64,000 nucleotides of DNA from contig SVIT01000002.1 in NCBI GenBank assembly GCA_015069365.1, forward strand, positions 1,235 through 65,234. The letters are read 5' to 3'. Under the pieces are notes generated by a model that ran no database searches, was not told the DNA's origin, and worked only from the letters and a program-made list of their open reading frames with translations. Position numbers and translations under genes: made by a program. Below, piece after piece: positions 26,447 through 64,000 of the stretch (position 1 is the first letter of the stretch; each line of letters opens with the position of its first letter). This DNA is from Clostridiales bacterium (GTDB lineage Bacteria > Bacillota > Clostridia > Christensenellales > Borkfalkiaceae).

Positions 26447-26476
26447 TTGACTTTTGTTAAAAAGCAATGATATAAT
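26447..26476 (+). promoter_or_regulatory. Sigma-A type promoter with extended -10 for the 2846-aa gene
   Basis: TTGACT at 26447-26452, 18-nt spacer, TGaTATAAT at 26468-26476. The leader is about 105 nt with TAGGAGG before ATG 26589. Confidence 0.7.
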
Positions 26477-26588
26477 ATGTAAAATTTGATAATAGCACGT
26501 AAAATCCCGTATTCTACCCGGTTTATAGCACGGGAAAAACGCAGAGATGTGCGTGAAATTATAAGAAAACATTTAGGAGGTAGCTTTT

Positions 26589-35129: not shown

Positions 35130-35172
35130 GCAAACCTTTCAATCGCATGATTGAAAAAACTAAATAAAAAGT

Positions 35173-35204
35173 CCGCCGCGAGGTTTCTCGCGGCGGTTCT
35201 TTTT
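35173..35204 (+). terminator. Strong rho-independent terminator
   Basis: CCGCCGCGAG (35173-35182) pairs with CTCGCGGCGG (35187-35196), 4-nt loop, followed by TTCTTTTT. Confidence 0.9.
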
Positions 35205-35487
35205 ATCAAAAGTCCGTTTTAAAAAAAAGGGGGACAATGAAGGTATTTTGTGACAAGAAAAATTGTCCTTTAAAATCGCTTTTTTCGATTAAGTTTATCA
35301 AAAAAACGAATGGTTGTAACGTTCAAAAAGATGTGTATTTTTGTGAAAAAATAACGCTTTTTAATCGTTTGTAACAAAGTGCATTTTTGCTTGGAAAATA
35401 AAGGGAAAGAGGACAATTCTTTTCGCCGTTTTTTGTGAAAATTTTGAGGAAATTGATTGTTTTTTTTGGATTTGCAGGCAAATTGCA

Positions 35488-35516
35488 TTTACTTTTTCGA
35501 TTATATATGATATAAT
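35488..35516 (+). promoter_or_regulatory. Extended -10 promoter (weak -35) for the MoxR operon
   Basis: TGaTATAAT at 35508-35516, with TTTACT at 35488-35493 (17-nt spacer). Confidence 0.5.
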
Positions 35517-35582
35517 TATGCTTACTGAAAAATGGTATTATTATAATCAGCCGTGTCTTCGAATACGGCAAAGGAGTATTAA

Positions 35583-36653
35583 ATGGCAGGTGAATTATTT
35601 AAAAAGTATTATTCGCGCCTGGCACGGGAAGGGATCATCAAATCCGCTTTGGTCGGTATGATTGTCGGATTCTCTACGCTCTTTTTGACATCTATAGTTT
35701 TGTGGTTGATAAATGAGGATCTTTTCTGGCTCGCGTTTATCAGCGGCGCAGCGGCTGGTGCGGTGGTAGCACCGGTGCTCTACTACAAGAAGTTTAAGCC
35801 CACCACAAAAGAGATCGCTCGCAGAGTTGACGAACTGGGGCTTGAAGAACGTGTGCTTACGATGACGGAGCTTGAAAACGATCAATCGTACATCGCGTTG
35901 CGTCAAAGAGAGGATACGGTTGCTGCGTTGCAAACGGTAAACGCAGGACTTCTGTCCATCGTGGTATCCATACCTTTGATCGTCTCTACTTGTGTAACGG
36001 GTGTGTTCGGGGTTGGTATGTCGGTCGTTACGGCGCTCAGCTCGGCAGGCGTTATTGAGAGCGGACGCGAGATAATCGAAGAAGCAATGAAACCTTTGCC
36101 TGAATATTTCGATATCGAATACGAAGTATCGGGAGAGGGCGGTAGAATCCTCAACTTCGAGACGGAAGAGGAAATTCCTTTCCAAGCTGTTGAGAAAGGC
36201 AAGAATGCGATTCCCGTCATTGCAGTGCCCGACGAAGGATACATATTCGTAGGTTGGTCGGATCAGTTTGAAGATCCTTACCGTGAAGATGAGAACATAA
36301 CCCAGCACATGACGTTGATCGCTGAGTTTGCAGAGCTCATGGACGGAGGGGATATGCCTGGCGGTGAAGACGGCTTCCCTGGTGACTTACCTGGTGATTT
36401 AGCAGGAGATCAAGGGAACGGCAAGCCAGGACAGGGCCCTGGCGCAGGCGGCGAGTTCATACCTACCAATCAGATCATCGACGGTGAGACGTTCTACGGA
36501 CATGAATATGAAGCGGCGTTTGAAGACGTACTTAACGTACTTGCTCAGAACGCAGAAATGTCCGATAGATTAAAGCAGTTGATTTCCAACTATTTCGAAA
36601 CGATCAAGACGACGACTTCGGATGATGGAACTTCAGGCAGCAATAGCAATTAA
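35583..36653 (+). CDS. Polytopic membrane protein with an extracytoplasmic InlB-B-like repeat and a Gly/Pro/Asp-rich segment
   Basis: AAGGAG SD. It has 2 N-terminal TM helices, a further hydrophobic pair (LLSIVVSIPLIVSTCVTGVFGVGMSVVTAL), then GYIFVGWSDQFEDPY...LIAEF (Listeria-Bacteroides repeat) and GGDMPGGEDGFPGDLPGDLAGDQGNGKPGQGPGAGG. Confidence 0.6.
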   Translation: MAGELFKKYYSRLAREGIIKSALVGMIVGFSTLFLTSIVLWLINEDLFWLAFISGAAAGAVVAPVLYYKKFKPTTKEIARRVDELGLEERVLTMTELENDQSYIALRQREDTVAALQTVNAGLLSIVVSIPLIVSTCVTGVFGVGMSVVTALSSAGVIESGREIIEEAMKPLPEYFDIEYEVSGEGGRILNFETEEEIPFQAVEKGKNAIPVIAVPDEGYIFVGWSDQFEDPYREDENITQHMTLIAEFAELMDGGDMPGGEDGFPGDLPGDLAGDQGNGKPGQGPGAGGEFIPTNQIIDGETFYGHEYEAAFEDVLNVLAQNAEMSDRLKQLISNYFETIKTTTSDDGTSGSNSN

Positions 36654-36698
36654 AACAAAAGTAAAAAAATAAAAAAAATTAAAAGAAGGGAAATAATT

Positions 36699-37727
36699 AT
36701 GAATGAAAAAGATGTAAACGTAACTGTTGGACAAAACGATATTGATATGTTCTGTAAACAATGTGCAGATATTTTCGAGCAGGTTGGCCGTGACGTTATC
36801 GGTCAGAAAGAAGTTGTAGAAGGTACGATCGTTGCGATGATCGCTGGCGGTAACGTATTGCTTGAAGGTGTGCCTGGGGTTGGTAAAACCCGTCTTGTAA
36901 GATCGTTGGGTAGAGTATTCGACCTTCCTTTCGCGCGTATCCAGTTTACGCCCGACTTGATGCCTGCCGACGTTACGGGTACCAACATCATCGTAAAAGA
37001 TGAAAACGGCAACTCCAGCTTCAAGTTTCAGCCTGGTCCTATTTTCAGCAATATTATTCTTGCCGACGAAATCAACCGTGCAACGCCGAAAACGCAGTCC
37101 GCGCTTCTCGAAGCCATGCAGGAACACACGGTTACCGTAATGGGTACGTCGAGAAAGTTGGAAGAACCTTTCTTCGTACTTGCAACGCAGAACCCTATCG
37201 AACAAGACGGTACGTATCCTTTGCCTGAAGCGCAGATGGACCGTTTCATGTTCAAACTCATCGTTCCCAACCCCAGCCTTGACGAACTTATGCAGATCGT
37301 TGACATGACGCAGAAGACGATGGCGGAAGTTGCAGAGAGCGTATGTAACGGCGAACAGCTCCTTCGCATGCGTGCGACGGCTAACCAGATCCCCGTTGCA
37401 GAAGAAGTGCTTCGTTATGCAATGATCATGACGAGTGCAACCCATCCCGACAGCGAATGCGCAAGCGAAGCCGCAAAGAAATATATCCGTAACGGTGCCA
37501 GCCCCCGTGCAGGTCAGGCTTTGATCTCCGCAGCGAAGGTAAAGGCGCTTATCAAGGGTAGATTCAACGTAGCGTTCTCGGATATCGAAGAACTTGCATA
37601 CCCCGTACTTCGTCACCGTATCAAACTCAACTTCGAGGCGATTGCAGAACGTGTAACGGCAGACGACGTAATCAAAATGATTGTTGAAGAAGTAAGCAAG
37701 AATCCTAAATATAAGAAAGTAAAATAA
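36699..37727 (+). CDS. MoxR-family AAA+ ATPase (AAA_3)
   Basis: Walker A LLEGVPGVGKT, the FARIQFTPDLMPADVTG signature, Walker B IILADEINRA, and the LLEAMQE and ATQNP motifs. Confidence 0.9.
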   Translation: MNEKDVNVTVGQNDIDMFCKQCADIFEQVGRDVIGQKEVVEGTIVAMIAGGNVLLEGVPGVGKTRLVRSLGRVFDLPFARIQFTPDLMPADVTGTNIIVKDENGNSSFKFQPGPIFSNIILADEINRATPKTQSALLEAMQEHTVTVMGTSRKLEEPFFVLATQNPIEQDGTYPLPEAQMDRFMFKLIVPNPSLDELMQIVDMTQKTMAEVAESVCNGEQLLRMRATANQIPVAEEVLRYAMIMTSATHPDSECASEAAKKYIRNGASPRAGQALISAAKVKALIKGRFNVAFSDIEELAYPVLRHRIKLNFEAIAERVTADDVIKMIVEEVSKNPKYKKVK

Positions 37728-37760
37728 TCATTAGTGTAGAGAACACAGGGAGGAAGTAGG

Positions 37761-38663
37761 ATGGCAGAATCTTTCTACTTAAACGATAAATTTTTCAGCC
37801 GATTGGAAACGTTGGCGTTAAATTTAAGAACCAGCCTTGCGGGATATTTCGGTGGTAAACACCTCGTAAGTACATACGGACAAACGGTGGAATTTTCCGA
37901 CTTTAGAGAATATCAACTTGGCGACGATATCCGTAGAATCGACTGGAACTTGTACAGCCGATTTGAGAAATATTTCCTGAAACTGTTCACCGACGAAAGA
38001 CAGATGCAGGTACAGATCTTTTTGGATTGTTCGGCGTCTATGGGTAAGGATAATCCGAAAAAATCTTCCTATGCAATCGCGGCAGCGGCGGCGCTCGGGT
38101 TCTTGGCGGTACATAATATGGATAAACTTTCCTTCCATCTTATGCGCGGCAACCGTGCGGACAATCCTTTCGGTACGATGATCGGTAAGAAAGCATTTTT
38201 CCGAGCAATGGGTACGTTCAACGATCTTGAATTTACCGATGACGCCGATATCGAGGCTTGCGTAACCAGCACCCCCGATACCAGCGTAAACAACGGCTTA
38301 ACGATTATTATTTCCGACTTTTTCACCGAGAGTAATTGGAAAAAAGCGGTAGATTATTTATGCTATAAAAAGCGTCAGGTACTTTTAATCCAAGTAATGA
38401 CGCCCGATGAATACGACCCGAATTACGATGGGCGAGTAAATCTGATCGACTCCGAAGCGGAGGATGTGTCTGACTTTAGAAACATGAAAGTGAAGATCAC
38501 GCGCAGTATGCAAAAAGCATATGAGGAAGCGATGGCAGATTTCAAACAAGACATTAAAGATTTTTGTTCTAGACGCGGAGTAGATTTTATCTCCGTATCC
38601 ACAGATACTCCTATTGAAAGAGTATTGTTTGGCGAATTGTTAAAAGTAGGTATTATGGCATGA
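37761..38663 (+). CDS. DUF58-family protein (vWA-like, MoxR partner)
   Basis: FSDFREYQLGDDIRRIDWNLYSR is the DUF58 signature. A MIDAS-like DCSASMG motif follows. Confidence 0.85.
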   Translation: MAESFYLNDKFFSRLETLALNLRTSLAGYFGGKHLVSTYGQTVEFSDFREYQLGDDIRRIDWNLYSRFEKYFLKLFTDERQMQVQIFLDCSASMGKDNPKKSSYAIAAAAALGFLAVHNMDKLSFHLMRGNRADNPFGTMIGKKAFFRAMGTFNDLEFTDDADIEACVTSTPDTSVNNGLTIIISDFFTESNWKKAVDYLCYKKRQVLLIQVMTPDEYDPNYDGRVNLIDSEAEDVSDFRNMKVKITRSMQKAYEEAMADFKQDIKDFCSRRGVDFISVSTDTPIERVLFGELLKVGIMA

Positions 38664-40666
38664 CATTATTAACACCTTTAGGGCTGTTGGGTTTAATAGG
38701 TATAATCGTCTTGATTATCATCTACATAATCAAGCCCAACTACCAACAAAAAGTAATTTCCAGTACGTACGTTTGGAAATTAAGTTTAAAATATAGAAAG
38801 AAAAAAATTCCCGTAAACAAACTTCGGAATTTCTTGATCATTCTCTGTCAGATCCTTATTTTGACGGCGGCGGCATTGATTTTGGCTGAGCCCGTACAAG
38901 TAATCAAACAAAAGGCGGATCACAGAGAGGTTATTGCGATCATTGATTCTTCTGCAAGTATGCGCACGGAAACGGGCGGTGAAACTCGTTTCGAAAGAGC
39001 GGTAAATCTTGTTTCCGAACTGACTGACGACGTTATGGGCAATTCGGGTACGGTTTCGGTTATTTTAGCGAATGAAAACCCGAGTTTCCTTGCGGAAAGA
39101 TACAATGGCGACAACCGCGCGGTTTTGCTCGATGAACTTTCCTTGCTTGTTGATGACGACGTATGTTCTTACGGCGTCTCCAATATCGAAAGCGCGATCG
39201 TGCTTTGCGAAGACATCTTGGAAGACAATCCCGAGGCAGAGGTACATCTTTTCACGGATACGACGTATAAATACGTTCCTAAGAAGAAAAATGGGGATTC
39301 CGTAATCAACGTAGTCAACGTATCGGACGAAGAGGAATACAACGTTGCGATTTTGGACGCATATTCGGTATATGAAGACAACTTCTACACCTTCTACATC
39401 GACGTTGCTTGCTACGGTCAAGAGAAAAACGTAACGGTAAACGTTTCGATCACTGGTGCAAACGGTGACGGTGAATTCCAAGGCACGGAAAAAGATTATT
39501 CGCACAGCGTACTCTTGTCCCGTGATAAAACGAAGAGAATCGTATTTATCAACAAAGACTTGTATCAAGATATGGAAAGCGAACAGGAAGACGTGGAATA
39601 CTATCCGTTAGAATATGATGAAAGAGTATTCTCCTATAAAGAAGTTTTCGTTTACATCGTAGAAGACGATTCTTTCCAAGACGATAACAACTTCTTGATT
39701 TACGATGGCGGAAAGGAAGTCGTCAAGATTATGTACAAGAGTCCGATTCCCAACCAGTTCTTCCCTGCGGTTATACAAAACTTGCGTTCTATTTACAAGG
39801 ATAAATGGGATTTCTGGATTACAGAAATCAAGGTAGGTACGGAAGAACCCGACCAGGGCTATTCAGGGTTCGATTTCTATTTCTTTGAGCATGAAATGCC
39901 CAAGAAAATGCCTACGGACGGTATCGTATTCCTTTGCGACCCCGATCCCAACCGTGCACCGCCTCCTCAAAAAGCGGATTTCCGTGTGGAAGGTCAGTAT
40001 CACTGGAACGGAAACAGCGTGTATTTGCAAGCGGAAGACGATAAGCACCCGCTGTTGAACTTTATCAATCCGTCCACGATTTCGATCAGTATGTATAACC
40101 GTATTACTTACGGTTCGAGCTACACCCCGTTGTTGCTCACGCCCGACGGAAAACCTGTATTGGCGGTATGCGACGAACCCGATGCAAAGATCGTTGTGCT
40201 CGGTTTCAGCGTTCACTATTCCAACTTAGCGATCAATGAAGGTATTGCTGTATTGCTGTATAACGTGTTCGAATACTTTATGCCTTCGACTGTTAGCAGC
40301 AACTCTTTTGAAATCAACGAACAAATCACGTTGAATGCACGTGGTAGAGAACTTTACGTTTCCAATGAATACGACGCGGAAGACCTCATGGTATTTGAGA
40401 CGTTCCCCGCATCGTTCACGGCGACTATGCCTGGTACTTATACACTTTCGCAAACGACGTTTGCAGGAAAGCCGATCGAGGAAAAGATCTTCGTAAGAAT
40501 TCCCGCATCGGAAAGTAACATTTGGGATACGGAAGACGCTTTGGGTAATCCGTTTAAGGAAATCGAAGCGATTGACTACTTCAACGATTTGATGAAATTC
40601 GTCGCGTTAGCGATGGTAATTATATTATTCATCGAATGGTGGTTGCATAATCGTGAGAATGGGTAA
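38660..40666 (+). CDS. BatA-like membrane protein with N-terminal double TM, one vWA domain and a C-terminal TM
   Basis: ATGA start/stop overlap with the DUF58 gene. The N-terminus LLTPLGLLGLIGIIVLIIIYIIKP is of the aerotolerance-regulator (BatA_N) type. MIDAS motif DSSAS. C-terminal TM FVALAMVIILFIEWW. Confidence 0.75.
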   Translation: MTLLTPLGLLGLIGIIVLIIIYIIKPNYQQKVISSTYVWKLSLKYRKKKIPVNKLRNFLIILCQILILTAAALILAEPVQVIKQKADHREVIAIIDSSASMRTETGGETRFERAVNLVSELTDDVMGNSGTVSVILANENPSFLAERYNGDNRAVLLDELSLLVDDDVCSYGVSNIESAIVLCEDILEDNPEAEVHLFTDTTYKYVPKKKNGDSVINVVNVSDEEEYNVAILDAYSVYEDNFYTFYIDVACYGQEKNVTVNVSITGANGDGEFQGTEKDYSHSVLLSRDKTKRIVFINKDLYQDMESEQEDVEYYPLEYDERVFSYKEVFVYIVEDDSFQDDNNFLIYDGGKEVVKIMYKSPIPNQFFPAVIQNLRSIYKDKWDFWITEIKVGTEEPDQGYSGFDFYFFEHEMPKKMPTDGIVFLCDPDPNRAPPPQKADFRVEGQYHWNGNSVYLQAEDDKHPLLNFINPSTISISMYNRITYGSSYTPLLLTPDGKPVLAVCDEPDAKIVVLGFSVHYSNLAINEGIAVLLYNVFEYFMPSTVSSNSFEINEQITLNARGRELYVSNEYDAEDLMVFETFPASFTATMPGTYTLSQTTFAGKPIEEKIFVRIPASESNIWDTEDALGNPFKEIEAIDYFNDLMKFVALAMVIILFIEWWLHNRENG

Positions 40667-40681
40667 AGGAGAAGTAAAATT

Positions 40682-43492
40682 ATGAAAAATTTCCATATTT
40701 ATTTTGCTTATCCTTGGGCATTGTTGGCGCTTGTATTAGCGGTTGTGCTCACGTTGATACCTTATTTCAGATTATCCAAAAGATACAGAAAAACGCGTAA
40801 CCGTATCACTTCCATTGTATTGCATTTGATTGTAATGACTTTGGCGATCGTTACGTTGGCAGGAATAGAATTCCGTTATCAAATTCCCAACGAAAACAAT
40901 GAGATTATCTTACTTGTCGACGTGTCGGATACCGAAGAAACGGTGGTGGACGAAAGAGACGCTTTCGTCAGATACGTGATCGAGGATGCAAAACATGATA
41001 ATTTCAGGGTAGGTATCGTAACGTTTGGGTACGACTACGAATACGCTGTACCTTTGACTAATGAGTTGGACGGGATATACGATCAGTACTTGAATGCGGC
41101 AAGTCCCGACACCACGGCAACGAACGTTGCGGGTGCACTTGAATATGCGAAAACGTTATTCAACAATCCCGAAACGAGCAAGATCGTTCTCATCACCGAT
41201 GGTAGAGAAACGGACAGAGAAATGACCAACGTTGTGCGCGCGATTTCTGCGCAAGGCACGAAAGTTGACGTGGCGCATATCGGCGAAGGATTCGACAATG
41301 CTGACGTACAGTTGATGGGAGTGGAAATGCCTTCCCACCATATTGCACAGAACGAAGAATGTACCGTTATGCTCAATGTACAAAGTACCGTGGCGACTTC
41401 GGTCAGCATCAGGCTTACCGATAACGGCGAGACGGCGAATGAAGTGACCGTGGATTTGAACAATTCTGGTATGCAAACCGTTCCGTTTGCACACACCTTC
41501 ATCAAAAAAGGATTGCATGAATTGAAGTTCGAAGTCACGCAAATTGCTTTTGACGGCTTGGAACAAAACAACGCATACACCACCTATTTTTCGTTGGAAG
41601 TATTCAATAAGATATTAGTTCTTGAATCGGTTCAAGGTACTTCTGAGGCCTTGATTACCATGCTCAATGAAGGCAACGAAACGCCTTACGAAGTGACGAC
41701 GATGAGTATTCAAGACGAGGAACTTCCCGAATCGGCTGCACAGCTTTGCGCATATGATCAGGTTGTTTTGAACAATATTGCAAACAAAGATCTCCCTGAG
41801 AATTTTGCAGAAGTATTAAAATCCTACGTTTCTGAATACGGCGGCGGTTTGTTCACCGCAGGCGGTGATAAAGCTTATGACCGTTCGGATATGTATGGTA
41901 CTCTTTATCAAGAAATGTTGCCCGTGCAGGCAATCAACTATACACCTCCCGTTGCCGTAATGATCGTACTCGATACCTCTGGGTCTATGAGTACGGAAGA
42001 TAACTACGGCGCAAACAAGCTCGACTGGGCAAAAGCGGGTGCGGCGTCCTGTTTGAACAGCTTGACCGAACGCGACTACGTAGGTATTATGACCCTTGAA
42101 TCGGTCGAATCGACCATTCTCGACTTGACGCCTCGTACGCAGGAATCTCGTATTCTCGCGGCGATCAACTCACTTGAAGAAGCAAACGGCGGTACGATTT
42201 GGACGGGTGCTATCGATCGTGCGGGGAAATCTCTCCGTACTATGAAAGACGTAGCAAAACGTCATATTATCGTCATCACCGACGGTGCAATCGGCGAAGA
42301 TCCCTCAAACTACGAAGGTATCATCAAAGAGTATTATGAAAACGATGGCACGACGCTTTCCGTTGTCGGGGTAGATATGGCGACTGGCGGTAAAGAATAC
42401 GATGAAATGTTGCAAGCAACGCAATGGGGCGGCGGTCAGCTTTACGTTACCTCTGCCGATCAGTTGATCAACAAACTTCGTGACGATTTGACGGCACCTG
42501 CTATTAAACAAGTCAACTACGGCACGTTTAAGCCCATGGCGTACAATATGGCGTCTCCTCTTTTGAAGGGGGTAGGTATGGGCGAAGGCGGTGAAGCGAA
42601 CCGTATCAATGCTACCTTGGAAGGTTTCTACGGTGTAAAAGTGCGTACGGATGCAGAACTCGTTTTGACGGGTGATTACAACGTACCCATCTATGCACAG
42701 TGGGCGTATGGCGAAGGTATGGTCGGCAGCTTCATGTGCGACTTGCAGGCAAGTACTTGGTCTAGCGGCTTTATGGCAGACGCAAACGGTAGAAAGTTCT
42801 TGAGAAATGCAATCAATAACTTGATGCCCAGTGAAGATATTCGTCCTAGCCAGATTGCATATGAAATGACTGAAGACAACTATACCAATCAGTTGAGCGT
42901 ATTCTCCGAATTGAAAGACGGCGAATATATCAAAGGCGAAATCGTCGAATATATCGACGGTGCTGAAGGGGATAGAATTTCTCTGAATGAAATCACACCG
43001 GGCAACGCACAAGCGCTTCGTGAAGCGGACGTTTACGTGACTCTGCCCATGTCTTCGGCAAACGGGTACAGCCGTTGCGACTTTGTTGTAAGAAAGAATG
43101 GCACGTATAAGATCGTGTTGACGAAATACAACAAGGACGGAAAAATTGTTAAGAATGCAAGCGGTGAAGATGTTGTCACGGAAGTATACAAATCGTTTGC
43201 ATACTCTGAAGAATACGACGTATATTCGGAAGACACTGCGGAAGTGATCAGCAAGAAGCTGGCAACGGTTGCAGAACGCGGTCAAGGCGCAGTGATTGAA
43301 GACCTGAACAATCCTTCGGAAGTATTCAACGGATTTGTAACGGCAATTGATAAATCGTTTGATCCCAGATTCTTGTTTATGATCATCGCAATCGTATTGT
43401 TCCTTGGGGATATTGCGGTTCGTAAGTTCAAATTCAAGTGGCCTCACGAGATCATTCGCGACTACAAACAAAAGAAAAACTTAAAGAAATAA
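40682..43492 (+). CDS. Membrane protein with BatA-like N-terminus, two vWA domains and a C-terminal TM
   Basis: AAGGAG SD. N-terminus FAYPWALLALVLAVVLTLIPYF. First vWA has LLVDVSDTE (DxSxT). Second vWA has IVLDTSGSMS (DxSxS). C-terminal TM FLFMIIAIVLFLGDIAV. Confidence 0.75.
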   Translation: MKNFHIYFAYPWALLALVLAVVLTLIPYFRLSKRYRKTRNRITSIVLHLIVMTLAIVTLAGIEFRYQIPNENNEIILLVDVSDTEETVVDERDAFVRYVIEDAKHDNFRVGIVTFGYDYEYAVPLTNELDGIYDQYLNAASPDTTATNVAGALEYAKTLFNNPETSKIVLITDGRETDREMTNVVRAISAQGTKVDVAHIGEGFDNADVQLMGVEMPSHHIAQNEECTVMLNVQSTVATSVSIRLTDNGETANEVTVDLNNSGMQTVPFAHTFIKKGLHELKFEVTQIAFDGLEQNNAYTTYFSLEVFNKILVLESVQGTSEALITMLNEGNETPYEVTTMSIQDEELPESAAQLCAYDQVVLNNIANKDLPENFAEVLKSYVSEYGGGLFTAGGDKAYDRSDMYGTLYQEMLPVQAINYTPPVAVMIVLDTSGSMSTEDNYGANKLDWAKAGAASCLNSLTERDYVGIMTLESVESTILDLTPRTQESRILAAINSLEEANGGTIWTGAIDRAGKSLRTMKDVAKRHIIVITDGAIGEDPSNYEGIIKEYYENDGTTLSVVGVDMATGGKEYDEMLQATQWGGGQLYVTSADQLINKLRDDLTAPAIKQVNYGTFKPMAYNMASPLLKGVGMGEGGEANRINATLEGFYGVKVRTDAELVLTGDYNVPIYAQWAYGEGMVGSFMCDLQASTWSSGFMADANGRKFLRNAINNLMPSEDIRPSQIAYEMTEDNYTNQLSVFSELKDGEYIKGEIVEYIDGAEGDRISLNEITPGNAQALREADVYVTLPMSSANGYSRCDFVVRKNGTYKIVLTKYNKDGKIVKNASGEDVVTEVYKSFAYSEEYDVYSEDTAEVISKKLATVAERGQGAVIEDLNNPSEVFNGFVTAIDKSFDPRFLFMIIAIVLFLGDIAVRKFKFKWPHEIIRDYKQKKNLKK

Positions 43493-43514
43493 AATACGGA
43501 AAGAAATGTACACC

Positions 43515-43545
43515 TCGCGACCATAGGGAGCACCCATGGTCGCGA
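43515..43545 (+). other. 13-bp stem hairpin without T-tract (not a canonical terminator)
   Basis: TCGCGACCATaGGG pairs with CCCATGGTCGCGA, with one bulged A and an AGCA loop. It is followed by non-U-rich sequence. It lies between the vWA gene and the next LRR gene, which has no recognisable promoter of its own. Confidence 0.6.
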
Positions 43546-43596
43546 TGAAACAGAAAATTCGGCAGACGTTCAAGATTTAAGGAGGACGTAGACTAT

Positions 43597-46496: not shown

Positions 46497-46526
46497 TTTA
46501 CAAATGAATACAAAAAATGTTATAAT
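46497..46526 (+). promoter_or_regulatory. Sigma-A type promoter with extended -10
   Basis: TTTACA at 46497-46502, 18-nt spacer, TGtTATAAT at 46518-46526. The leader to ATG 46638 is about 105 nt. Confidence 0.65.
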
Positions 46527-51917: not shown

Positions 51918-51942
51918 CAATATGAATAATTAACAATCGTTG

Positions 51943-51982
51943 CAAATTCCGTATGGACTCGTAAGGGACCATATGGAATTTG
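51943..51982 (+). other. 14-bp stem hairpin after the 1759-aa gene (weak or no U-tail)
   Basis: CAAATTCCGTATGG (51943-51956) pairs with CCATATGGAATTTG (51969-51982), with one G-U pair. A second small hairpin with a T4 tail is at 52007-52027. I found no promoter before ATG 52042. Confidence 0.5.
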
Positions 51983-52041
51983 TGCGGAAATAAAAACTTT
52001 CAAAAACCGATGGAAAAATCGGATTTTAGAGGTAAGAAGAT

Positions 52042-55000
52042 ATGAAGAAATTCAAAAAACAAATGATCAGGATACTCTCGCTGTGCAGCGCAACCTGTTT
52101 TGTACTGGGTGCGTGTGCGGAGAGTGCGAAAACTGCCCAAAACAACGTGTTAAACGAAGGCGCGGGTACATACACTGAAAAAACAAACGGTTCGATCAAG
52201 ACCAATCAGGAAAATTTCTATGACGAAAACGTGATTTATCAGTTGCCCGACAGCGTTGCTTTGAACACGGATATTTCCGTCATCGTTACGATGAGTACAA
52301 AGTCTTTGGTTAAGACTTATTTAAGCACGGAAAAGGAAGATACGGTTTCCGATTTCATCAAATCGAAAGAGGGTAAAGAAACGTCTAAAGAAATTGAGAC
52401 GGAACGCAAAAACCTGATTAAAAAGTTGAAAAAATCTGGGGTAGATTATACACTTGGCGAGCAGTACGACACCGTATTGAGCGGTTTTGAAATCACCATC
52501 AAAGCGAAAGATTTCGATACCGTAAGCGAGTTGTTTAAAAACGACGCGCAGTTGATCGTCGGCGAAGTATACGAACCTGCGATTACGGAAGTCGTTACCA
52601 ACGAAGTAGACGTTTATGACACGGGTATTTTCACTGGTTTGGACGACTACAAGGGGGACGGCGTTGTCGTTGCGGTACTCGATACCGGTCTTGACTATAC
52701 GCACTCTGCGTTCTTACCTGAAAATTTCCCTGAAATGGGTATTAAAGAGGACGTAGCGTTTGAGCTTGACGATATCAAAGGCATCTTGGCAGACAAGAAG
52801 ATGGTTGCAGAAACGACTACTTCTGGGTTGACTGCAAACGACGTGTACTTGAACAAGAAAGTGCCTTATATGTATGACTACGCGGATAAAGATCCCGATG
52901 TAATGCCTATTAACTCCGAACACGGTACCCACGTTGCAGGTATTATCGCAGGTCAGGACAATACTATTACGGGTGTTGCTCCCAACGCGCAGCTTGCAAT
53001 CATGAAAGTATTCTCCGATACGCAAACGGGCGCAAAGACCTCTTGGATCTTGGCGGCGCTGGAAGACTGCGTAAACCTCGGGGTAGACGTTATCAACATG
53101 TCGCTCGGTTCGGGTTGCGGTTTCGCAAGAGAATCGGACGACGACGTGAGCACGACTTACGATAAGACGATCAACCAAGTATACGATTCCGTTCGTGACG
53201 CAGGTATTTCCTTGATCGCGGCGGCAGGTAATGATTATACGTCTACGATGAACTCTGAAAAGAACGGTAGCTTGTCGTTGACCTCCAACCCTGACTTTGG
53301 TACGGTAGGTTCGCCTTCGACGTATGCGGCGGCTTTGTCCGTTGCATCGGTTGACGGTGTACAGACCCCGTATATCAAATACGGCGACGAAATCATCTAC
53401 TTCAACGAAGCTTCCACTTCGGACGGGAAACCGAGAAACTTTGTAGATGGGTTGCTTAATAATTACGAAGCGCAGACGGGGATTAAGACCGACACCCAAG
53501 AATTCGAATATATCACCATTCCTGGTATTGGTCGTGAATCCGATTATATGTCGGATATTGACTATACTGGCAAAATTGTACTCGTTAAACGCGGAACCAC
53601 GACGTTCGAAGAAAAGGTAAGAATCGCCTTAAAAGTTATGGGCGCAACGGGTATTATTATCTATAACAACGTATCGGGTATGATCTCGATGGCAGTCGGT
53701 GATAACGTAGGTCCCGTATGTTCGATCGCACAGGATGAAGGTGAAATGCTGGCGGCGAACCCCACGGGTACAATCGTGATCAGCCGTAACAACACGGCAG
53801 GGCCTTTCATGTCGGAGTTCTCTGGTTGGGGACCCACGTCCGACCTTCAAATCAAGCCTGAGATCACGGCGCACGGCGGTGAAATTTTGTCTGCAATGCC
53901 TGGTAACGGCTATGAAAGAATGTCTGGTACGTCCATGGCAGCGCCTAACCAAGCGGGTGCAACGGCGTTGATCCGTCAGTACGTAAGATACAGCGGACAA
54001 TTCGGCGATAACTATGAAGAATTGACCACGAGCGAAGCTTGTGAAGTTACGGCAATCGTCAACCAGTTGATGATGTCTACAGCGGATATCTTAAGCAACA
54101 AAAACGGTTTGCCGTATGCAGTTAGAAAGCAGGGCGCAGGCCTTATCAATCTTCGAAAAGCAACCACGACGGAAGCGTATTTGACGACGTTCGATAAGAC
54201 GGGTGCTTTGATGGATAAAGCGAAGATTGAACTTGGTGATGATAAGACGAAATCGGGCGCGTACACGATGGAGTTGGCTATCAACAACATCAGCGCATCG
54301 ACGGTATCCTATAACGTAGATTCGATCATGCTCACGGAAGGCGTTGCAAAGACGTATACCGGTCACGACGAACAAACGGTTACGCAAGAGGGTTACATTT
54401 TGAATTCAACCACGACGGTAAAGGAAGTGGGCGGTGTAGCGGCAACCTCGAACACGGTCACCGTAGGCGCAAAACAAACGGTAAAGATTAAGGTCGAAAT
54501 TGTGCTTTCCGCAGAGGATAAAGCATATTTGGACGAATCGTTTGCAAACGGTATGTACGTAGAAGGCTTTATCAAATTGGAAGCGCAAGGCGACACAAAG
54601 GTAAACTTGAGTGTGCCTGTGCTCGCATTCTACGGCGATTGGACGAAAGCGCCCATCTTCGACGAAGAATACTACGATACGCACAAAGACGAACTCAACG
54701 AAGGTTTGAATCACGAAGATAAAGTAATGGCGGACGCGTACGCAACGAGAGTACTCGGCGGCTTGTACAGCGACTATATCACCACACTCGGTACCTATTA
54801 TTTCAAACAGGATCCGAAAGCGACGCCGATCGCGGCGAATAAAGAGCATATCGCCATTTCCAACCAGTACGACGATACGGATGAAGAAGACAAAGGTAAC
54901 CTTTCAACGGTTAACTCGATCCATTCTATCTATGCAGGTTTGCTTAGAAACTGTAGAGAAGTGAATATTTCCATCGTGGAAGATTCGACTGGTGAAGAAG

Positions 55001-58000: not shown

Positions 58001-59688
58001 AAACGGAATCGAAGACGGAAGAAGCTCCAAAAGAATTTATTGTAAACGCGTATAAATACGTGTACGTTCACGGTGAAGACGGCGAAGAAGGCGAGGAAAG
58101 AATCACTCATTATCAAACGACGAAGTTTGCGCCTATCTTCAAGAAAGCGGATGTTTCGGGTGCGACGTATATCGGTGAAGGTGCGTTTGCATACAACGAA
58201 AAGCTGGAAGAAGTAATCTTCAGCGAGCAGTTGGAAGAAATTCCCGCATATGCGTTTGCGCTTTGCTCCTCGCTTGCAAAAGCGGATTTAACGGCAAGCA
58301 TCAAGACGGTTAACGAATATGCGTTCTATCTCACGGCGTTCAGCGGTGAAAGCGTAGATCTTAAAAACGTAGAAACGATTGGCGAAGCTGCGTTTGCAAG
58401 CAGTAAGATCACCAAGGTAACGTTTAAAGACGGCGCGACAATCGGCGAAAGCGCGTTTAAGGATTGTGAACTTCTTACGGGTGTTGACGTATCAAAGGTA
58501 AAAGAAATCGGTGCGGAAGCGTTCTATGGTACTTCGCTCACGTTTGCGGATTTGACGAGTGCTACGAAGGTTGGTGATTTTGCATTTGGCGAATCCAAGG
58601 TAACGGGCGTCAAACTTGGTTCGAACCTTGAAGATCTGGGCGAAAATCCTTTCTATGCTTGCGCGATTGAAACCTACGGCACAACCGAAGACGTTTACTT
58701 CAACAACGAAAAGTTAGAATCGAAACTTGTTGAAACGTATAACGTAAACGATAAAGTACTCGTTATCAACGGCGTACTGTATCAGAAGGTAAAAGCAGGT
58801 CTTGAACTGATCTCCTATCCTATGAACAAAGTAGGAAAGGCTTATGCAGTAGAAGAAGGCACGACGAGAATCACTGCAAGAGCGTTGGCAGGTTCGATGT
58901 TGGAAGACGTTACGTTCCCCACCACGTTGATGGCGGTTGGTGACAAAGCGTTGTACGATTGTAAGAACTTGTCTGTAGTAGTATTCAAGAGCTACTTTGC
59001 TCCTGTTTTGGAAGAGGACTATGATCAGTCGAGAATTTCCTACGACAACCTTGCAATGACGGGTCAGATCGGGGAATACGTAGGCCTTGGTATCGTGAAG
59101 TATTATATGTGGAATTCTACTTCGCATTATACGAACTTCTACTTCGGTGCAAACTTTGTAGACTTCATCGGTGATATTGACAAACACGTCGTTATGGTAA
59201 AACCTGCGAACGGAAGAAACTATAGCACGTTTATCTTCAGTCAGTATTTCAACACGGTCGTAGAGGGCAGCAATGCGGCGATGGAAGAAACCATTTCGGT
59301 TATTTCCTTGATCAATTCGTTGCCTGAAGAAATCAGCCTGAGCGACGAAGCTGCTATCTTGGCGGCGCGTGCGGCATACGATAAGATTATGACGCTCGAA
59401 CAGAAATCGCTCGTTGGCAACTATAACAAACTTACGAGTGCGGAATCCACGCTTGAATATTTGAAATCTCGTGTGGAAACGCCTGATGACCCTGAAACAC
59501 CTCCGGCTGAAACACCGGACGATCCTGAAACACCTCCCACCGAAGAGCCGAAAGACGGTAATACGGGGTATGTAATCGCAATCGTTGCATTGTCGGTTGC
59601 ACTTGTAGGCGTAGCAGGATATTTCGTGTGCGATAAGTTCATCTTCTCGAAGAAAACTAAGAAAAACAACGAGAAGTCGGAAGAATAA
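52042..59688 (+). CDS. 2548-aa cell-envelope S8 subtilase (PA-domain insert, Fn3-like and Big_2-like modules) fused to a ~1000-aa BspA-type LRR array; N-terminal lipobox and C-terminal TM anchor
   Basis: Lipobox VLGAC|A. Catalytic triad motifs are VAVLDTGLD (Asp codon 52681-52683), HGTHVAGI (His codon 52921-52923) and SGTSMAAPNQAG (Ser codon 53932-53934). A PA-like segment (GKIVLVKRGTTTFEEKV...GIIIYNN) lies between His and Ser. C-terminal end has ETPDDPETPP x2, then GYVIAIVALSVALVGVAGYFV and a K-rich tail. Confidence 0.85.
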   Translation: MKKFKKQMIRILSLCSATCFVLGACAESAKTAQNNVLNEGAGTYTEKTNGSIKTNQENFYDENVIYQLPDSVALNTDISVIVTMSTKSLVKTYLSTEKEDTVSDFIKSKEGKETSKEIETERKNLIKKLKKSGVDYTLGEQYDTVLSGFEITIKAKDFDTVSELFKNDAQLIVGEVYEPAITEVVTNEVDVYDTGIFTGLDDYKGDGVVVAVLDTGLDYTHSAFLPENFPEMGIKEDVAFELDDIKGILADKKMVAETTTSGLTANDVYLNKKVPYMYDYADKDPDVMPINSEHGTHVAGIIAGQDNTITGVAPNAQLAIMKVFSDTQTGAKTSWILAALEDCVNLGVDVINMSLGSGCGFARESDDDVSTTYDKTINQVYDSVRDAGISLIAAAGNDYTSTMNSEKNGSLSLTSNPDFGTVGSPSTYAAALSVASVDGVQTPYIKYGDEIIYFNEASTSDGKPRNFVDGLLNNYEAQTGIKTDTQEFEYITIPGIGRESDYMSDIDYTGKIVLVKRGTTTFEEKVRIALKVMGATGIIIYNNVSGMISMAVGDNVGPVCSIAQDEGEMLAANPTGTIVISRNNTAGPFMSEFSGWGPTSDLQIKPEITAHGGEILSAMPGNGYERMSGTSMAAPNQAGATALIRQYVRYSGQFGDNYEELTTSEACEVTAIVNQLMMSTADILSNKNGLPYAVRKQGAGLINLRKATTTEAYLTTFDKTGALMDKAKIELGDDKTKSGAYTMELAINNISASTVSYNVDSIMLTEGVAKTYTGHDEQTVTQEGYILNSTTTVKEVGGVAATSNTVTVGAKQTVKIKVEIVLSAEDKAYLDESFANGMYVEGFIKLEAQGDTKVNLSVPVLAFYGDWTKAPIFDEEYYDTHKDELNEGLNHEDKVMADAYATRVLGGLYSDYITTLGTYYFKQDPKATPIAANKEHIAISNQYDDTDEEDKGNLSTVNSIHSIYAGLLRNCREVNISIVEDSTGEEVFYRSEKKMRKSAYRGGGIGPSAIDVEFSSIEHNLKNNTKYTVTVTAYIDYGDNADQKNERNTFTFPLYIDFQAPAVTDVRYRSEYDRTTKKTKLFADIDVYDNHYAMAMQLGQIIEADENSEYTYEMDTFGKYFTPIYSSYNSTSTVTVELTDYVDRLKKSVGSAYDEEGKNQVVYNNNSFIAICYDYAMNAATYEIRLPDEILTAAFTEEEIQLTVGRTKDLTSIMSIYPSESWVQTLDFVSENPAIASVVNNVVVGKGEGETVINAVKKDANNNERIVASIPITVAPGSGFGSMEVVNKFELTGYYTNKAYYSVSSDEREIGETDSTNAFGKDGAILSMYPSESVTIEYTLDSYYPDETKVVMESMNEDIAIIREMKDEDGNPLIDPKTGEVKLEIVAQAEGRTDISIDVYQFVDGEWEMTMTSESVSIEVKDPFTVSGMYLMSYKGLGGVVEIPSDRGITAIYQYAFSNYEYIPKDENDEINEEDPFYIKPWYIGEDTITKVIIPEGVTAIESYAFANLTALEEVVLPKSLVRIGVGAFTGCVKLKKINLDYAKFINEEAFKDCPLTSVKLDSAVSIGNYTFQNTKISALTLPVSSQSLGIGAFADNAELRTLNFAAPKMKIGSYAFSNCPNLNNVVINASVIASYAFYDCVKLENVTIGKDVAVIGEFAFTGTNVSQFKVEDGGVISVDEENSANLLKNNELILVAPKGATMDYVIGNNVTSIAAGAFAGNTKIQNVTALDVEVVGEYAFAECLNLKSVNMPKVKTVGNYAFAGTSLTAMPDSEVLTEIGDYAFAGTLLTEVTIMPDANVGAYAFGGFVVMESGQRVNRYTTETLVKVTVGNGATIGEGAFNAPIYMATYENIESLYYYKPYTYYLQDKDGNYISEDGEIVANKADAKQYTYYTYDFSKAGAGIAPSILKEVYIGEEVTIGRNSFSGNAKLQTLEFGNGTTVGDYAFMNSAFYDENVLQEVDLSGVVSIGEYAFSGTSLYDYQVIETESKTEEAPKEFIVNAYKYVYVHGEDGEEGEERITHYQTTKFAPIFKKADVSGATYIGEGAFAYNEKLEEVIFSEQLEEIPAYAFALCSSLAKADLTASIKTVNEYAFYLTAFSGESVDLKNVETIGEAAFASSKITKVTFKDGATIGESAFKDCELLTGVDVSKVKEIGAEAFYGTSLTFADLTSATKVGDFAFGESKVTGVKLGSNLEDLGENPFYACAIETYGTTEDVYFNNEKLESKLVETYNVNDKVLVINGVLYQKVKAGLELISYPMNKVGKAYAVEEGTTRITARALAGSMLEDVTFPTTLMAVGDKALYDCKNLSVVVFKSYFAPVLEEDYDQSRISYDNLAMTGQIGEYVGLGIVKYYMWNSTSHYTNFYFGANFVDFIGDIDKHVVMVKPANGRNYSTFIFSQYFNTVVEGSNAAMEETISVISLINSLPEEISLSDEAAILAARAAYDKIMTLEQKSLVGNYNKLTSAESTLEYLKSRVETPDDPETPPAETPDDPETPPTEEPKDGNTGYVIAIVALSVALVGVAGYFVCDKFIFSKKTKKNNEKSEE
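59476..59541 (+). repeat. Imperfect 33-nt x2 in-frame tandem repeat (ETPDDPETPPA/T) in the stalk before the C-terminal anchor
   Basis: GAAACGCCTGATGACCCTGAAACACCTCCGGCT followed by GAAACACCGGACGATCCTGAAACACCTCCCACC. Confidence 0.85.
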
Positions 59689-59709
59689 CAGTGTAAAAAA
59701 GAGGATTTT

Positions 59710-61323: not shown

Positions 61324-61350
61324 AAAATATATATAAACGGAGGCAGTAAA

Positions 61351-64000
61351 ATGAACAAGAAGAAGATCACCAGATTTTTCAACGTATTGCTGAGCGTGTT
61401 CATGTCCAGTTCCATTGTACTGGCAAGCGGATGTAGCGACGATAGTGATTCGAGCAGCGGCAACAATCCTGGTGGCAACACGACGAAAAAAGACAGTATC
61501 GTAATTATGACGGAAGAATTGAGCGGTTTGTTCAACCCGTTCTATGCAACTTCGGGTGCGGATATGGACGTTGTCGGCATGACGCAGATCGGCATGCTTG
61601 CTACGGATAGAGACGGTAACCCCGTTGCAGGTGAAGAGGAATCGACGGTTGTTCTTGATTTCGATTACGAAATTCAGAACGAAAACACGAACAACGCAAA
61701 GACGGTATATACGTTTGTCCTTAAAAACGGTTTGAAGTTCTCCGACGGCAAACCTTTGACGATGAATGACGTTATGTTCAACATCTACGAATATCTCGAT
61801 CCCGTATACACTGGTTCTTCCACTATGTACTCTATCGATATCGACGGTTTGTACGAATATAGATATCAGACGGAAAAGAGCGATCTTACCGACGCTAGCG
61901 AAGATATCTCCAAGAACGCGGCAACCTATGCAAACAACAGAATCCGCGAACTTAGACGTATTTACGAAACGGAAGGTAAAAAGAACACGGGTAGCGATTC
62001 TGCATTTAGCGCTACTGAAGAACAGATGAAAGCGGCGATTGCTGCAGTAACCAGCGTATCTTCCGGTTACAAGAGAGCTGTATCTGCAGAAACGCTTACG
62101 CTTGAAGAATACAAGGCGAAGTTGGCGGAAGATTATCAGTTCACCCTTGATACGTTCAAGAAAGAATTGCAGGCAGACTTCAAGGCTGCAAAAGAATCTT
62201 TTGACGTAACGACCGCGCCTTATAACGAATGGAAAGATTTGCTTGAAAACGACGTATTCAAGTTCTTCCTCTATGAAGGCCGTATCACGCCTAAATATGA
62301 GAAAGAAGAAGGTTCGGAAAGAGATAACAAGCTGAAGATCTTGGATTTCTACAATAAAGATCTTGCAAACAAGTACACTGAAGAAACGGCGATCGATCTT
62401 ATCTATAGAGATACGATTAAAACGGAATTTGACAGAGTACTTACGCAGTGGGGTACGGCAGGTACGCTCCTTACGCAATATACGGCAGACGCAACCTCCA
62501 TCCTTTTGCATAAGCAGGTTGGTTCCAACGGTATGGCATTCCCCTATATCAGAGGTGTAAAATCGCTTGGTCAACCCTATAACAATTCGGGTGAAGCGGC
62601 TCGTACCAAGGTTACGGTAAACGGTAAAGAATATAAAGTTGCAAACGAATACAATGCAGACGGTACGGTTAAGAACGAAAACGAATATGCAGTTCTTGAA
62701 ATCACGGTAAACGGTACCGATCCGAAAGCTATTTACAACTTCGGTTTCACCGTTGCTCCCGCACACTACTATACGGCAGACGAGGCTAATCCCAACGGTA
62801 GAGTAGTAGATATCGAAAATTGCAAATTCGGTGTAGAATGGTCGGACAGCACCTTCCAGAGCAAGACCATTCAATCTCAAAAACACGTAGAAGTTCCCGT
62901 GGGCGCAGGTCCTTTCATGGCAACCGACGACGATAATAATACCAATCCCGCAGGTAACAAGTTCTGGAACAGTAACATCGTATATTACAAGAGAAACGAT
63001 CACTTCATGTTCCCTGTAAAAGCGGCGAAGCTTCGTTTGCAAGTAGTTAGTTCAACGAATGCGCTCGACAAGCTTGAAAAGGGTGAAGTTGACTACGTAA
63101 CCCCTCAGTTCACGAAAGAAAACTCGAAGAAATTGAACGCAATGGAATCGAAAGGCTTTAAGGCTCTTGATTCTTGGCAGCTCGGTTACGGTTATATCGG
63201 TATCAACGCAGGTAAGGTAGAAAACGTATGGATTCGCCGTGCAATTATGGCGGCAATGCAGACGGAGCTTGCTTGCGACTACTATGAACCCAACACCTGT
63301 CAGCAGATTGACTGGCCTATGTCTTTGGTAAGCTGGGGCTATCCTAGAGAACAAGACGGTGAAACGCCGAAGGGAAGTCCTGTTGCTTGGACGCAATGGA
63401 CTGGCGTAGAAGCTGCGAAGACTAAGATTAATCAGTACGTTGCAAATGCGGCGCAGGAACTCGGCGGAACGCCTAACTTGAAGTACACCTTCACGATTGC
63501 AGGCGCATCCATCACTGAACACCCCACGTATGCAGTATTTAAGCAGGCGGCGGAAATCCTCAACTCTTGCGGTTGGGACGTAGAAGTAAAAGCTGACTCT
63601 CAGGCACTTACCAAGCTTTCGACCGGTGCTTTGCAAGTTTGGGCAGCGGCTTGGGGTTCAACCATCGATCCCGATATGTATCAGGTATATCACAAAGATT
63701 CTAAGGCAACCTCCGTATATGCATGGGGTTACCGTGAAATCAAGGCGGATACGACCAAGTATTCTTATGAATACGATCTTATCAGCAAAGAATTGAGCCC
63801 GTTGATCGACGATGCACGCTCAATCATGGATCAGGCAACGAGAAAGCCTATGTACGAACAGGCAATGAAGCACGTGTTGAACTTGGCTATCGAAATGCCC
63901 GTATATCAGAGAAAGACGTTGTATGCTTACAATCAGAACACGTTGAAAGGCTTGAACGACAACGTTAACCCTTACTCTTCGCCTCTTGAAAAGCTTTGGG
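61351..64000 (+). CDS. Family-5 (OppA/DppA-like) ABC transporter solute-binding lipoprotein, 3'-truncated by the window end
   Basis: Absent from the ORF track because no stop is reached. ACGGAGG SD, ATG 61351. My translation is MNKKKITRFFNVLLSVFMSSSIVLASGC|SDDSDSS..., followed by LFNPFYATSGADMDVVGMTQIGML and FVLKNGLKFSDGKPLTMNDVMFNI, typical of SBP_bac_5. The frame stays open to position 64000. Confidence 0.75.
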   Translation, partial: MNKKKITRFFNVLLSVFMSSSIVLASGCSDDSDSSSGNNPGGNTTKKDSIVIMTEELSGLFNPFYATSGADMDVVGMTQIGMLATDRDGNPVAGEEESTVVLDFDYEIQNENTNNAKTVYTFVLKNGLKFSDGKPLTMNDVMFNIYEYLDPVYTGSSTMYSIDIDGLYEYRYQTEKSDLTDASEDISKNAATYANNRIRELRRIYETEGKKNTGSDSAFSATEEQMKAAIAAVTSVSSGYKRAVSAETLTLEEYKAKLAEDYQFTLDTFKKELQADFKAAKESFDVTTAPYNEWKDLLENDVFKFFLYEGRITPKYEKEEGSERDNKLKILDFYNKDLANKYTEETAIDLIYRDTIKTEFDRVLTQWGTAGTLLTQYTADATSILLHKQVGSNGMAFPYIRGVKSLGQPYNNSGEAARTKVTVNGKEYKVANEYNADGTVKNENEYAVLEITVNGTDPKAIYNFGFTVAPAHYYTADEANPNGRVVDIENCKFGVEWSDSTFQSKTIQSQKHVEVPVGAGPFMATDDDNNTNPAGNKFWNSNIVYYKRNDHFMFPVKAAKLRLQVVSSTNALDKLEKGEVDYVTPQFTKENSKKLNAMESKGFKALDSWQLGYGYIGINAGKVENVWIRRAIMAAMQTELACDYYEPNTCQQIDWPMSLVSWGYPREQDGETPKGSPVAWTQWTGVEAAKTKINQYVANAAQELGGTPNLKYTFTIAGASITEHPTYAVFKQAAEILNSCGWDVEVKADSQALTKLSTGALQVWAAAWGSTIDPDMYQVYHKDSKATSVYAWGYREIKADTTKYSYEYDLISKELSPLIDDARSIMDQATRKPMYEQAMKHVLNLAIEMPVYQRKTLYAYNQNTLKGLNDNVNPYSSPLEKLW

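Follow-up and report, generated by a model that had tools for sequence, protein, structure and literature searches.

We analysed a 64,000-nucleotide stretch of DNA from a Clostridiales bacterium of the Borkfalkiaceae (contig SVIT01000002.1 of assembly GCA_015069365.1, positions 1,235 to 65,234 of the forward strand; hereafter the window), and in particular a 37-kb block at positions 26447–64000 that encodes six proteins with lipoprotein-type N-termini, here called P1 to P6. In the reading that we favour, with a probability of roughly 55%, the block consists of two conserved modules: module A, in which a Bat-like complex of a MoxR ATPase and von Willebrand factor A (vWA) proteins would assemble or hold giant lipoproteins on the cell surface, and module B, an operon for proteolysis and peptide uptake.

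To compare gene order among relatives, we used VWA2, one of the two membrane-held vWA proteins of module A, as a query of genome contigs, which gave 218 relatives, and fetched 80 loci at 41–62% identity. These come from metagenome-assembled genomes (MAGs) of uncultured gut and rumen Clostridia, with labels that include Christensenellaceae, Ca. Borkfalkiaceae, Ca. Scatosoma and Ca. Neoclostridium. A few labels are odd: loci L015 and L016 have identical gene layout and open reading frame (ORF) lengths yet were deposited as ‘Anaeroplasma bactoclasticum’ and ‘Prevotella sp.’, and L047 and L055 bear the names ‘Parasutterella excrementihominis’ and ‘Acidiphilium sp.’, all of which look like binning or labelling errors in public MAG records. 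The ORFs of each locus were labelled by phmmer against the window proteins, and since the VWA2-centred loci have 10-kb flanks, P5 and P6 were sought via P5-centred loci instead.

The usual order of module A in these loci is a giant leucine-rich repeat (LRR) protein, G2, MoxR, DUF58, BatA, VWA2, P2 and P3. The LRR giant lies 5′ of G2 in 35 of 35 loci, with full-length P1 orthologues of 2803, 2979 and 3235 aa; a P2 orthologue of 919–1043 aa comes right after VWA2 in 65 of 67 loci, and a P3 orthologue of 1636–1761 aa right after P2 in 50 of 55. The flanks are not kept in this way: P1 is preceded by glutamate dehydrogenase in L093 but by SpoVAD in the window, and the gene next to P3 on its 3′ side is P4 in 20 of 54 loci and one of a diverse, unrelated set of housekeeping genes in ∼32. 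Judged from these comparisons, the gene order of module A (26589–51917) is kept in uncultured Christensenellales-like gut Clostridia down to ∼41% identity, and the MoxR–vWA operon, which an earlier note on this DNA had called embedded, is the conserved core of module A and not an accidental insertion.

The first gene of this operon in every locus viewed is G2 (35583–36653; this and all genes of the block described below lie on the + strand), a 356-aa protein with four predicted transmembrane (TM) helices, in which two N-terminal helices are clear and a hydrophobic stretch spans 36 residues. The protein has an InlB B-repeat of divergent sequence (Flg_new_2) and ends in an acidic tail rich in Gly and Pro; it belongs to an orphan family whose 278 homologues are every one annotated as hypothetical. 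G2 is followed by a cytoplasmic MoxR-type AAA+ ATPase (36699–37727; AAA_3, PF07726, 3e-62, plus AAA_lid_2) and, after a 33-bp gap, by a DUF58 protein (37761–38663; PF01882, 4.8e-32), neither of which has a TM helix by topology prediction. The next two genes encode the membrane-held vWA proteins. The BatA-like protein (38660–40666; PF07584, VWA_2 and TIGR02226) has TM helices at residues 6–24, 60–78 and 638–656 and an ectodomain of ∼560 aa with a vWA domain bearing a metal ion-dependent adhesion site (MIDAS; D96-S98-S100), and the 936-aa VWA2 (40682–43492) has helices at 8–26, 44–62 and 895–913 and an ectodomain of ∼830 aa with two vWA domains.

In 60–75 of 75 orthologues the MIDAS motif DxSxS/T is kept, a count that covers DUF58, the vWA domain of BatA and each of the two in VWA2. 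In both BatA and VWA2 the loop between helices 1 and 2 and the C-terminal tail are rich in Lys and Arg, which under the positive-inside rule would place these parts inside and the large vWA ectodomains outside the cell. The Borrelia protein BB0173 likewise has three helices (7–25, 57–77 and 310–328), and its vWA domain was mapped experimentally to the periplasm (PMC5700661). In tiled Pfam scans at E ≤ 1, the remainder of the two ectodomains, like the stalk of P4, gave nothing reliable, with a faint GATase1_like/ThuA hit between the vWA domains of VWA2, and no block gene matched the TPR, BatD or SH3 models expected of BatC, BatD or BatE partners. Relative to the window proteins, the median identity of orthologues is 83% for MoxR (range 73–94%) and drops to 71% for DUF58, 48% for VWA2, 43% for BatA and 39% for G2 and P2, a gradient that would fit conserved cytoplasmic parts and faster-evolving exposed parts.

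Module A opens with P1 (26589–35129), a 2846-aa lipoprotein with its lipobox Cys at residue 33, Flg_new repeats, Fn3-like modules and an LRR_5 solenoid of ∼2,000 aa. P2 (43597–46446; 949 aa, Cys26) combines an Fn3-like module, LRR_5 repeats (155–840) and a C-terminal Flg_new repeat. The ORF calls place all six lipobox genes where the earlier note had put them, and the four giants P1 to P4 (2846, 949, 1759 and 2548 aa) do fill ∼24.3 kb, at 8102 aa in total; the six are not consecutive as described, since five non-lipoprotein genes separate P1 from P2. The Pfam check proposed in that note confirmed both LRR_5 and Flg_new. The domain grammar that it saw recurring across the proteins holds in part: LRR_5 (PF13306) is found in P1 (E = 0, in 18 stretches), P2 (2e-152) and P4 (4e-100), and Flg_new repeats of the InlB B-type in P1, P2 and P3, but the Pfam scan finds no LRR_5 in P3, P5 or P6. 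Similarly, the WxxVxNAxxY motif taken as Fn3-like is present in P1 and P2, but no Pfam fn3 model matches either protein. The near-continuous LRR array of ∼1900 aa was recovered with an iterated hidden Markov model (HMM), in which LRR_5 spans residues 785–2828 of P1 and is nearly unbroken over 1027–2828. Its repeat unit is 22–23 aa long with an IGxxAFxxC signature, and from typical LRR geometry we estimate that a solenoid of ∼78 such units would reach tens of nanometres.

The third giant lipoprotein, P3 (46638–51917; 1759 aa, Cys45), closes module A. Past its two Flg_new repeats, a tiled Pfam scan with a cutoff as loose as E ≤ 1 left ∼1,570 aa unmatched, and its ∼80 full-length homologues in a 90% database are named only ‘InlB B-repeat-containing protein’. 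The core of P3 is represented 207 times among 1.84 billion proteins, nearly all of them colinear and 1630–1860 aa long, and a profile self-comparison shows internal repeats at offsets of ∼170–190 and 360 aa. An AlphaFold2 model of residues 361–1460 is all-beta (pLDDT 85.9, pTM 0.52), and a Foldseek comparison of this model with the PDB returned only propeller-like matches (DDB1, CPSF160) with TM-scores of 0.08–0.10; sequence searches of the PDB with P3, P5 and P6 gave nothing useful. On this modelling, P3 is a predicted member of an orphan all-beta family. In the four most distant loci (L081, L083, L085 and L086, 41–43% identity), P2 is followed by a lipoprotein of 1055–1115 aa that phmmer did not match to P3 and that may be a shortened or replaced third lipoprotein.

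To assess lipid anchoring we used the core of PROSITE PS51257, [LVI][ASTVI][GAS]C after a Lys/Arg n-region and a hydrophobic core. It occurs in all six N-termini, each with a K/R-rich n-region and a hydrophobic core. The n-region of P3 is long, and a ribosome-binding site precedes its ATG at 46638; an alternative start at ATG 46560 was rejected, as it has no ribosome-binding site and the orthologues begin with a short n-region. Among the 106 window ORFs of at least 100 aa, the pattern picked out five of the six block genes plus one antisense ORF, and no ORF in the 26 kb 5′ of the block; P3 was scored from 46560 in that scan, which placed its Cys outside the 50-aa test window, and it matches when read from 46638. 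Across relatives the lipobox Cys is conserved in five of the proteins, being invariant in P2 (72 of 72 orthologues) and P5 (59 of 59), kept in at least 90% of 52 P3 orthologues and retained in those of P1 (two N-termini read, of the 2803- and 2979-aa proteins) and P6. P4 is the exception, its lipobox being found in 0 of 5 orthologues checked. These carry ordinary signal peptides, and all five have a C-terminal TM helix with a basic tail, so that the conserved anchor of this protein is C-terminal (helix and tail at 59572–59688 in the window). The P4 lipobox seen here (52042–52116) may have arisen in this species from an ordinary signal peptide (…LGAC-AESAKTAQ here versus …GGVFA-ESIKTAQ), and by analogy with other cell-envelope proteinases a lipid anchor at this end would be lost anyway if the propeptide-like region (∼27–200) were removed.

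P4 (52042–59688; 2548 aa) opens module B and has the make-up of a cell-envelope proteinase. Its parts run from the signal sequence and lipobox through a propeptide-like region, a Peptidase_S8 domain with a PA insert (PF02225), fn3_5 (PF06280), LRR_5 repeats (1484–2335) and a helical region to a Pro/Glu/Thr spacer, a TM helix (2511–2529) and a Lys-rich tail, with no LPXTG motif. It is homologous to C5a peptidase, SpyCEP and PrtA (E = 6e-57 to 4e-51; 7edd at 6e-57 over residues 201–880), and its catalytic D214, H294 and S631 and oxyanion N397 are all intact. P5 (59710–61323; 537 aa, Cys23) is an orphan lipoprotein, predicted to be mainly beta, that lacks a rotamase domain or any other Pfam match and whose 141 homologues are every one annotated as hypothetical. 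Its AlphaFold2 model is sheet-rich (pLDDT 86.5, pTM 0.77) and found no PDB match below E = 0.06 with Foldseek, with faint resemblance to an InlB B-repeat and to a beta-helix of the pectate-lyase-like kind. P6 (61351–64000, Cys28), which runs past the end of the window, is an OppA-like lipoprotein (SBP_bac_5, 1.5e-21, with a weak Opp4A match). It is 889 aa long in metagenome contigs of the same species, in one of which (L001) OppB and OppC lie next 3′, and its enlarged size is conserved in orthologues (865–922 aa); an insert of ∼270 aa, largely helical, at residues ∼162–437 separates the N-terminal SBP_bac_5 match from the main one.

The context of module B was taken from P5 homologues in five distant genomes (38–46% identity). 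All five have the same order: a protease of 2444–2508 aa with S8, PA, fn3_5 and LRR_5 domains, then P5, an SBP_bac_5 protein, OppB, OppC, OppD and OppF. P3 lies 5′ of this module in four of them, and in the fifth, L096, module B stands without module A, after NMO, FabA, DegV and UPRTase. For this reason, and because the adjacency of A and B varies, we regard the block as two modules that adjoin here. In four of the five loci module B ends after OppF with an ORF of 82–86 aa (L089 18656–18904, L091 19023–19271, L096 18790–19050, L097 18915–19169), which would fall beyond the window here; the fifth locus stops at a contig end. The product of this small conserved ORF is Lys-rich at its N-terminus, carries a ‘YYDDGS..DMS’ motif and has a TM helix at the other end.

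How could these parts work together? In module A, the two vWA proteins, each with membrane-anchoring helices at its N- and C-terminus, would present their MIDAS–vWA ectodomains outside the cell, where these may dock P1, P2 and P3 or organise them into a stable surface binding structure that reaches beyond the wall, while the cytoplasmic MoxR ATPase and DUF58 would assemble or remodel the vWA–lipoprotein complex from inside. In module B, the LRR-bearing protease P4, tethered by its C-terminal helix, would cut captured proteins, and the OppA-like P6 would pass the resulting peptides to OppBCDF, as in the PrtP/Opp systems of lactic acid bacteria. The directly observed basis for this model is the gene content, the domains, the predicted topology, the catalytic triad, the MIDAS motifs and the synteny; what we infer is that lipoproteins and vWA proteins are in physical contact, what MoxR does, which ligands are bound and any coupling of A to B.

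The docking and remodelling that we propose for module A draw on two precedents. Mycobacterial MoxR1 has been reported as a chaperone of the secreted hydrolase RipA. In addition, the bifidobacterial PFNA cluster (Pkb2 kinase, FN3 protein, MoxR AAA-ATPase, DUF58 and transglutaminase) likewise encodes MoxR and DUF58 together with a surface protein made of binding modules, one that binds cytokines and has been proposed to recognise host factors (PMC8430577). Pfam finds no Ser/Thr kinase or transglutaminase domain in our block, where the partners are instead TM-vWA proteins and giant LRR lipoproteins.

The closest likeness of the core itself is to the Bat operons (batA-E of B. fragilis, BB0170–BB0176 of Borrelia and bat of Leptospira), which have the same order of a MoxR AAA_3 ATPase, DUF58, a BatA-type protein and a second TM-vWA protein, and of which BB0173 shares with BatA and VWA2 the three-TM layout and a vWA domain outside the cytoplasm. 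Several features set the present operon apart from these: its ectodomains measure 560 and 830 aa compared with ∼230 aa in BB0173, its host is a Gram-positive-type spore former, and in place of BatC, BatD and BatE (TPR, SH3) it has the 4-TM InlB-repeat protein G2 upstream and three giant lipoproteins (two LRR_5, one orphan beta-repeat) in fixed positions. The LRR proteins recall the BspA family (Tannerella BspA, Treponema LrrA) and streptococcal Slr and HupY/LrrG, which have the same LRR_5 signature and surface anchoring, with Slr as a precedent for a lipid-anchored LRR protein (PMC3105044). Here, in contrast, an array of ∼1,800–2,000 aa sits in one chain, the orthologues are 1:1 and conserved in length, and the synteny with MoxR–vWA is fixed; a role in adhesion would be by analogy with that family.

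Module B resembles the route of the lactic acid bacteria in which a cell-envelope proteinase feeds OppA and then OppBCDF (PMC3587842, PMC7783315), in that it encodes an OppA-type lipoprotein and OppBCDF. Like PrtP, ScpA/C5a peptidase, SpyCEP and PrtA, P4 combines a propeptide-like part, an S8 domain that contains a PA insert, fn3_5, a helical segment, a spacer rich in Pro and an anchor. Module B departs from those systems in several ways. A single operon encodes both the protease and the importer, the protease stalk has taken up an LRR_5 array of ∼850 aa, and attachment is by a TM helix rather than LPXTG. The binding protein has 889 aa with its ∼270-aa insert, and no PrsA/PrtM-type maturase is present, its position being occupied by the orphan P5.

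A bolder version of this model, which we hold only as a tentative idea, takes module A to be a hitherto unrecognised envelope apparatus in which MoxR and DUF58 act via the doubly anchored MIDAS–vWA proteins to assemble, hold or switch the three giant lipoproteins, in a kind of integrin-like inside-out control. Joined by the neighbouring LRR-bearing protease and the Opp importer, such an apparatus would make the block the Gram-positive equivalent of a ‘protein utilisation locus’, one that captures, cuts and imports. If this were true, Bat-type MoxR–vWA operons would gain their first defined extracellular clients.

Several observations weigh against the two-module reading or limit how far it can be taken. 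Modules A and B adjoin in only 20 of 54 loci. Four loci (L018, L020, L029 and L053) pass from G2 directly to BatA, with no MoxR–DUF58 pair between; in L029 the pair comes directly after P3 and is hence still within the cluster, and in L053 it is not beside P3 either, a glutamine-synthetase-like gene following there, so having the MoxR ATPase in cis may not be a strict requirement. Because every locus belongs to the same lineage, some of the synteny could be ancestral gene order, and this single uncultured lineage, known here from its genes, is the main limit of the analysis. For P3 and P5, PDB, Foldseek and Pfam searches returned no structural or sequence relative that points to a function, and even in model species the function of Bat and MoxR–vWA proteins is unsettled, removal of all bat genes in Leptospira having given no phenotype.

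Transcription adds a further caution. The three promoters recognised by the earlier note are indeed the best intergenic + strand matches: 26447–26476, 5′ of P1 (TTGACT, 18-nt spacer, TATAAT; 11 of 12 positions), 35488–35516, 5′ of the G2/MoxR operon (10 of 12), and 46497–46526, 5′ of P3 (11 of 12), each with a TG extension. They are consensus matches in a window whose total of promoter-like matches is not above shuffled expectation. The one strong terminator of that note, too, was recovered as the sole strong hairpin in a scan of the window (35173–35206, 3′ of P1; 10 bp, 9 of them GC, then a T-run). These signals point to three or more transcription units (P1 on its own, G2 through P2, and P3 with what follows) and thus do not establish co-regulation of module A.

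These separate promoter-like sites, and the strong terminator after P1, also favour an explanation in which gene order carries no functional coupling and independent operons lie side by side only by shared ancestry in one lineage. The separability of module B, the origin of all 80 loci in one clade and the lack of LRR partners in Bat operons elsewhere are consistent with it as well. Shared ancestry alone fits less easily with an order and lengths that are kept down to 26–43% identity (P2, G2 and BatA) while both flanks change, with the relocation of MoxR–DUF58 to a place inside the cluster in L029, or with the InlB-type repeats shared by G2, P2 and P3. P3 and G2 are moreover orphan families, all 50 P3 orthologues viewed in context follow P2, and the rarity and near-complete colinearity of the P3 core in the protein universe searched point the same way. 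On balance we consider an absence of coupling unlikely, and prefer the reading in which the Bat-like complex holds the lipoproteins.

The earlier note had proposed instead that the whole 37 kb is a single dedicated surface-display locus for adhesion or the capture of ligands. LRR_5, Flg_new and vWA are classical adhesion modules, the lipoboxes are present, streptococcal LRR lipoprotein adhesins such as Slr exist (PMC3105044), and an LRR ORF further upstream in the window matches a HupY/LrrG model, so that part of this proposal, surface-anchored proteins with binding modules, is supported by prediction. The comparative mapping that it called for found the block conserved but split into two modules, which are separate in many genomes. 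Two of the supposed members, P4 and P6, moreover prove to be an S8 protease with an intact triad and the OppA-like protein of an OppBCDF importer. P1, P2 and P3 keep fixed lengths and 1:1 orthology across dozens of species, and their genes lack tandem repeats at the DNA level, unlike fast-changing adhesins, which favours a conserved surface structure over variable adhesins, and the composition of the block gives no sign of an island. An adhesin locus of 37 kb therefore seems to us rather improbable. Least probable by far is that module A is a MoxR–vWA conflict or defence system with P3 as its beta-rich third component, along the lines of the MoxR–vWA–beta-propeller ternary conflict systems that Kaur, Burroughs, Iyer and Aravind reportedly described in 2020: the bpMoxR model (PF20030) does match the ATPase at 1.2e-9 and the best Foldseek matches of the P3 model are multi-propeller proteins, but AAA_3 outscores bpMoxR by 208.7 to 38 bits, the DUF58 and BatA N-terminal domains are marks of the classical Bat-type MoxR operon, prediction places P3 and the vWA domains outside the cytoplasm, the propeller TM-scores reach only 0.08–0.10, and Pfam scans of the block, with PADLOC not searched, found no effector or toxin domain.

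At the scale of the whole window, nearly every real gene from ∼10 kb on is on the + strand and the GC skew is positive throughout; since this co-orientation reaches well 5′ of the block, it looks like ordinary strand bias and not like a property of the block. The composition profile shows no anomaly in the block and no mobile genes were found in the window, and on these grounds, together with the conserved chromosomal locus, a recent island was rejected. A recent expansion of repeats or phase variation was likewise rejected, as the LRR arrays have no DNA-level tandem repeats and a single short one of 69 bp was found. The spore-forming Firmicute host that had been proposed is supported by SpoVAC and SpoVAD, encoded 5′ of the block. 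The two genes (spoVAC 22762–23214 and spoVAD 25221–26228, both +) are split by a 555-aa fusion that joins a Na/Pi cotransporter to a PhoU-like domain (23478–25145), an unusual interruption of spoVA. The LRR ORF mentioned above lies 24 kb 5′ of the block (410–2329, +) and encodes a 639-aa BspA-type LRR_5 protein (PF13306, 3.1e-91; the HupY/LrrG match is weak) with an N-terminal hydrophobic anchor, no lipobox and an uncertain start codon (TTG). The largest unexplained gene outside the block is an 820-aa ORF (6123–8585, −) with no Pfam or NCBIfam match, and a 395-aa single ORF (13114–14301, +) matching PRK07152 fuses NadD, the nicotinate-nucleotide adenylyltransferase, to a YqeK HD-domain Ap4A hydrolase.

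Every domain family in the block is already known. The conserved association of these families, the three orphan families and the single-operon layout of protease and importer were not found in the searched literature, where the Borkfalkiaceae papers were taxonomic or ecological and none mentions MoxR together with BspA; in agreement with the earlier note, no characterised, named system matches the block. G2, the P3 core and P5 each represent an orphan family confined to this lineage; the P3 core and P5 are confidently modelled and have no known fold relative. The all-in-one operon of protease and peptide importer, in abundant uncultured Clostridia of the gut and rumen, bears on how these organisms may feed on dietary or host protein. 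Bat (MoxR–DUF58–vWA) operons are widespread and their function has been unclear since they were first described; here such an operon is synteny-locked with three exported partners across many species, which gives a concrete, testable hypothesis on what Bat-type systems may act on.

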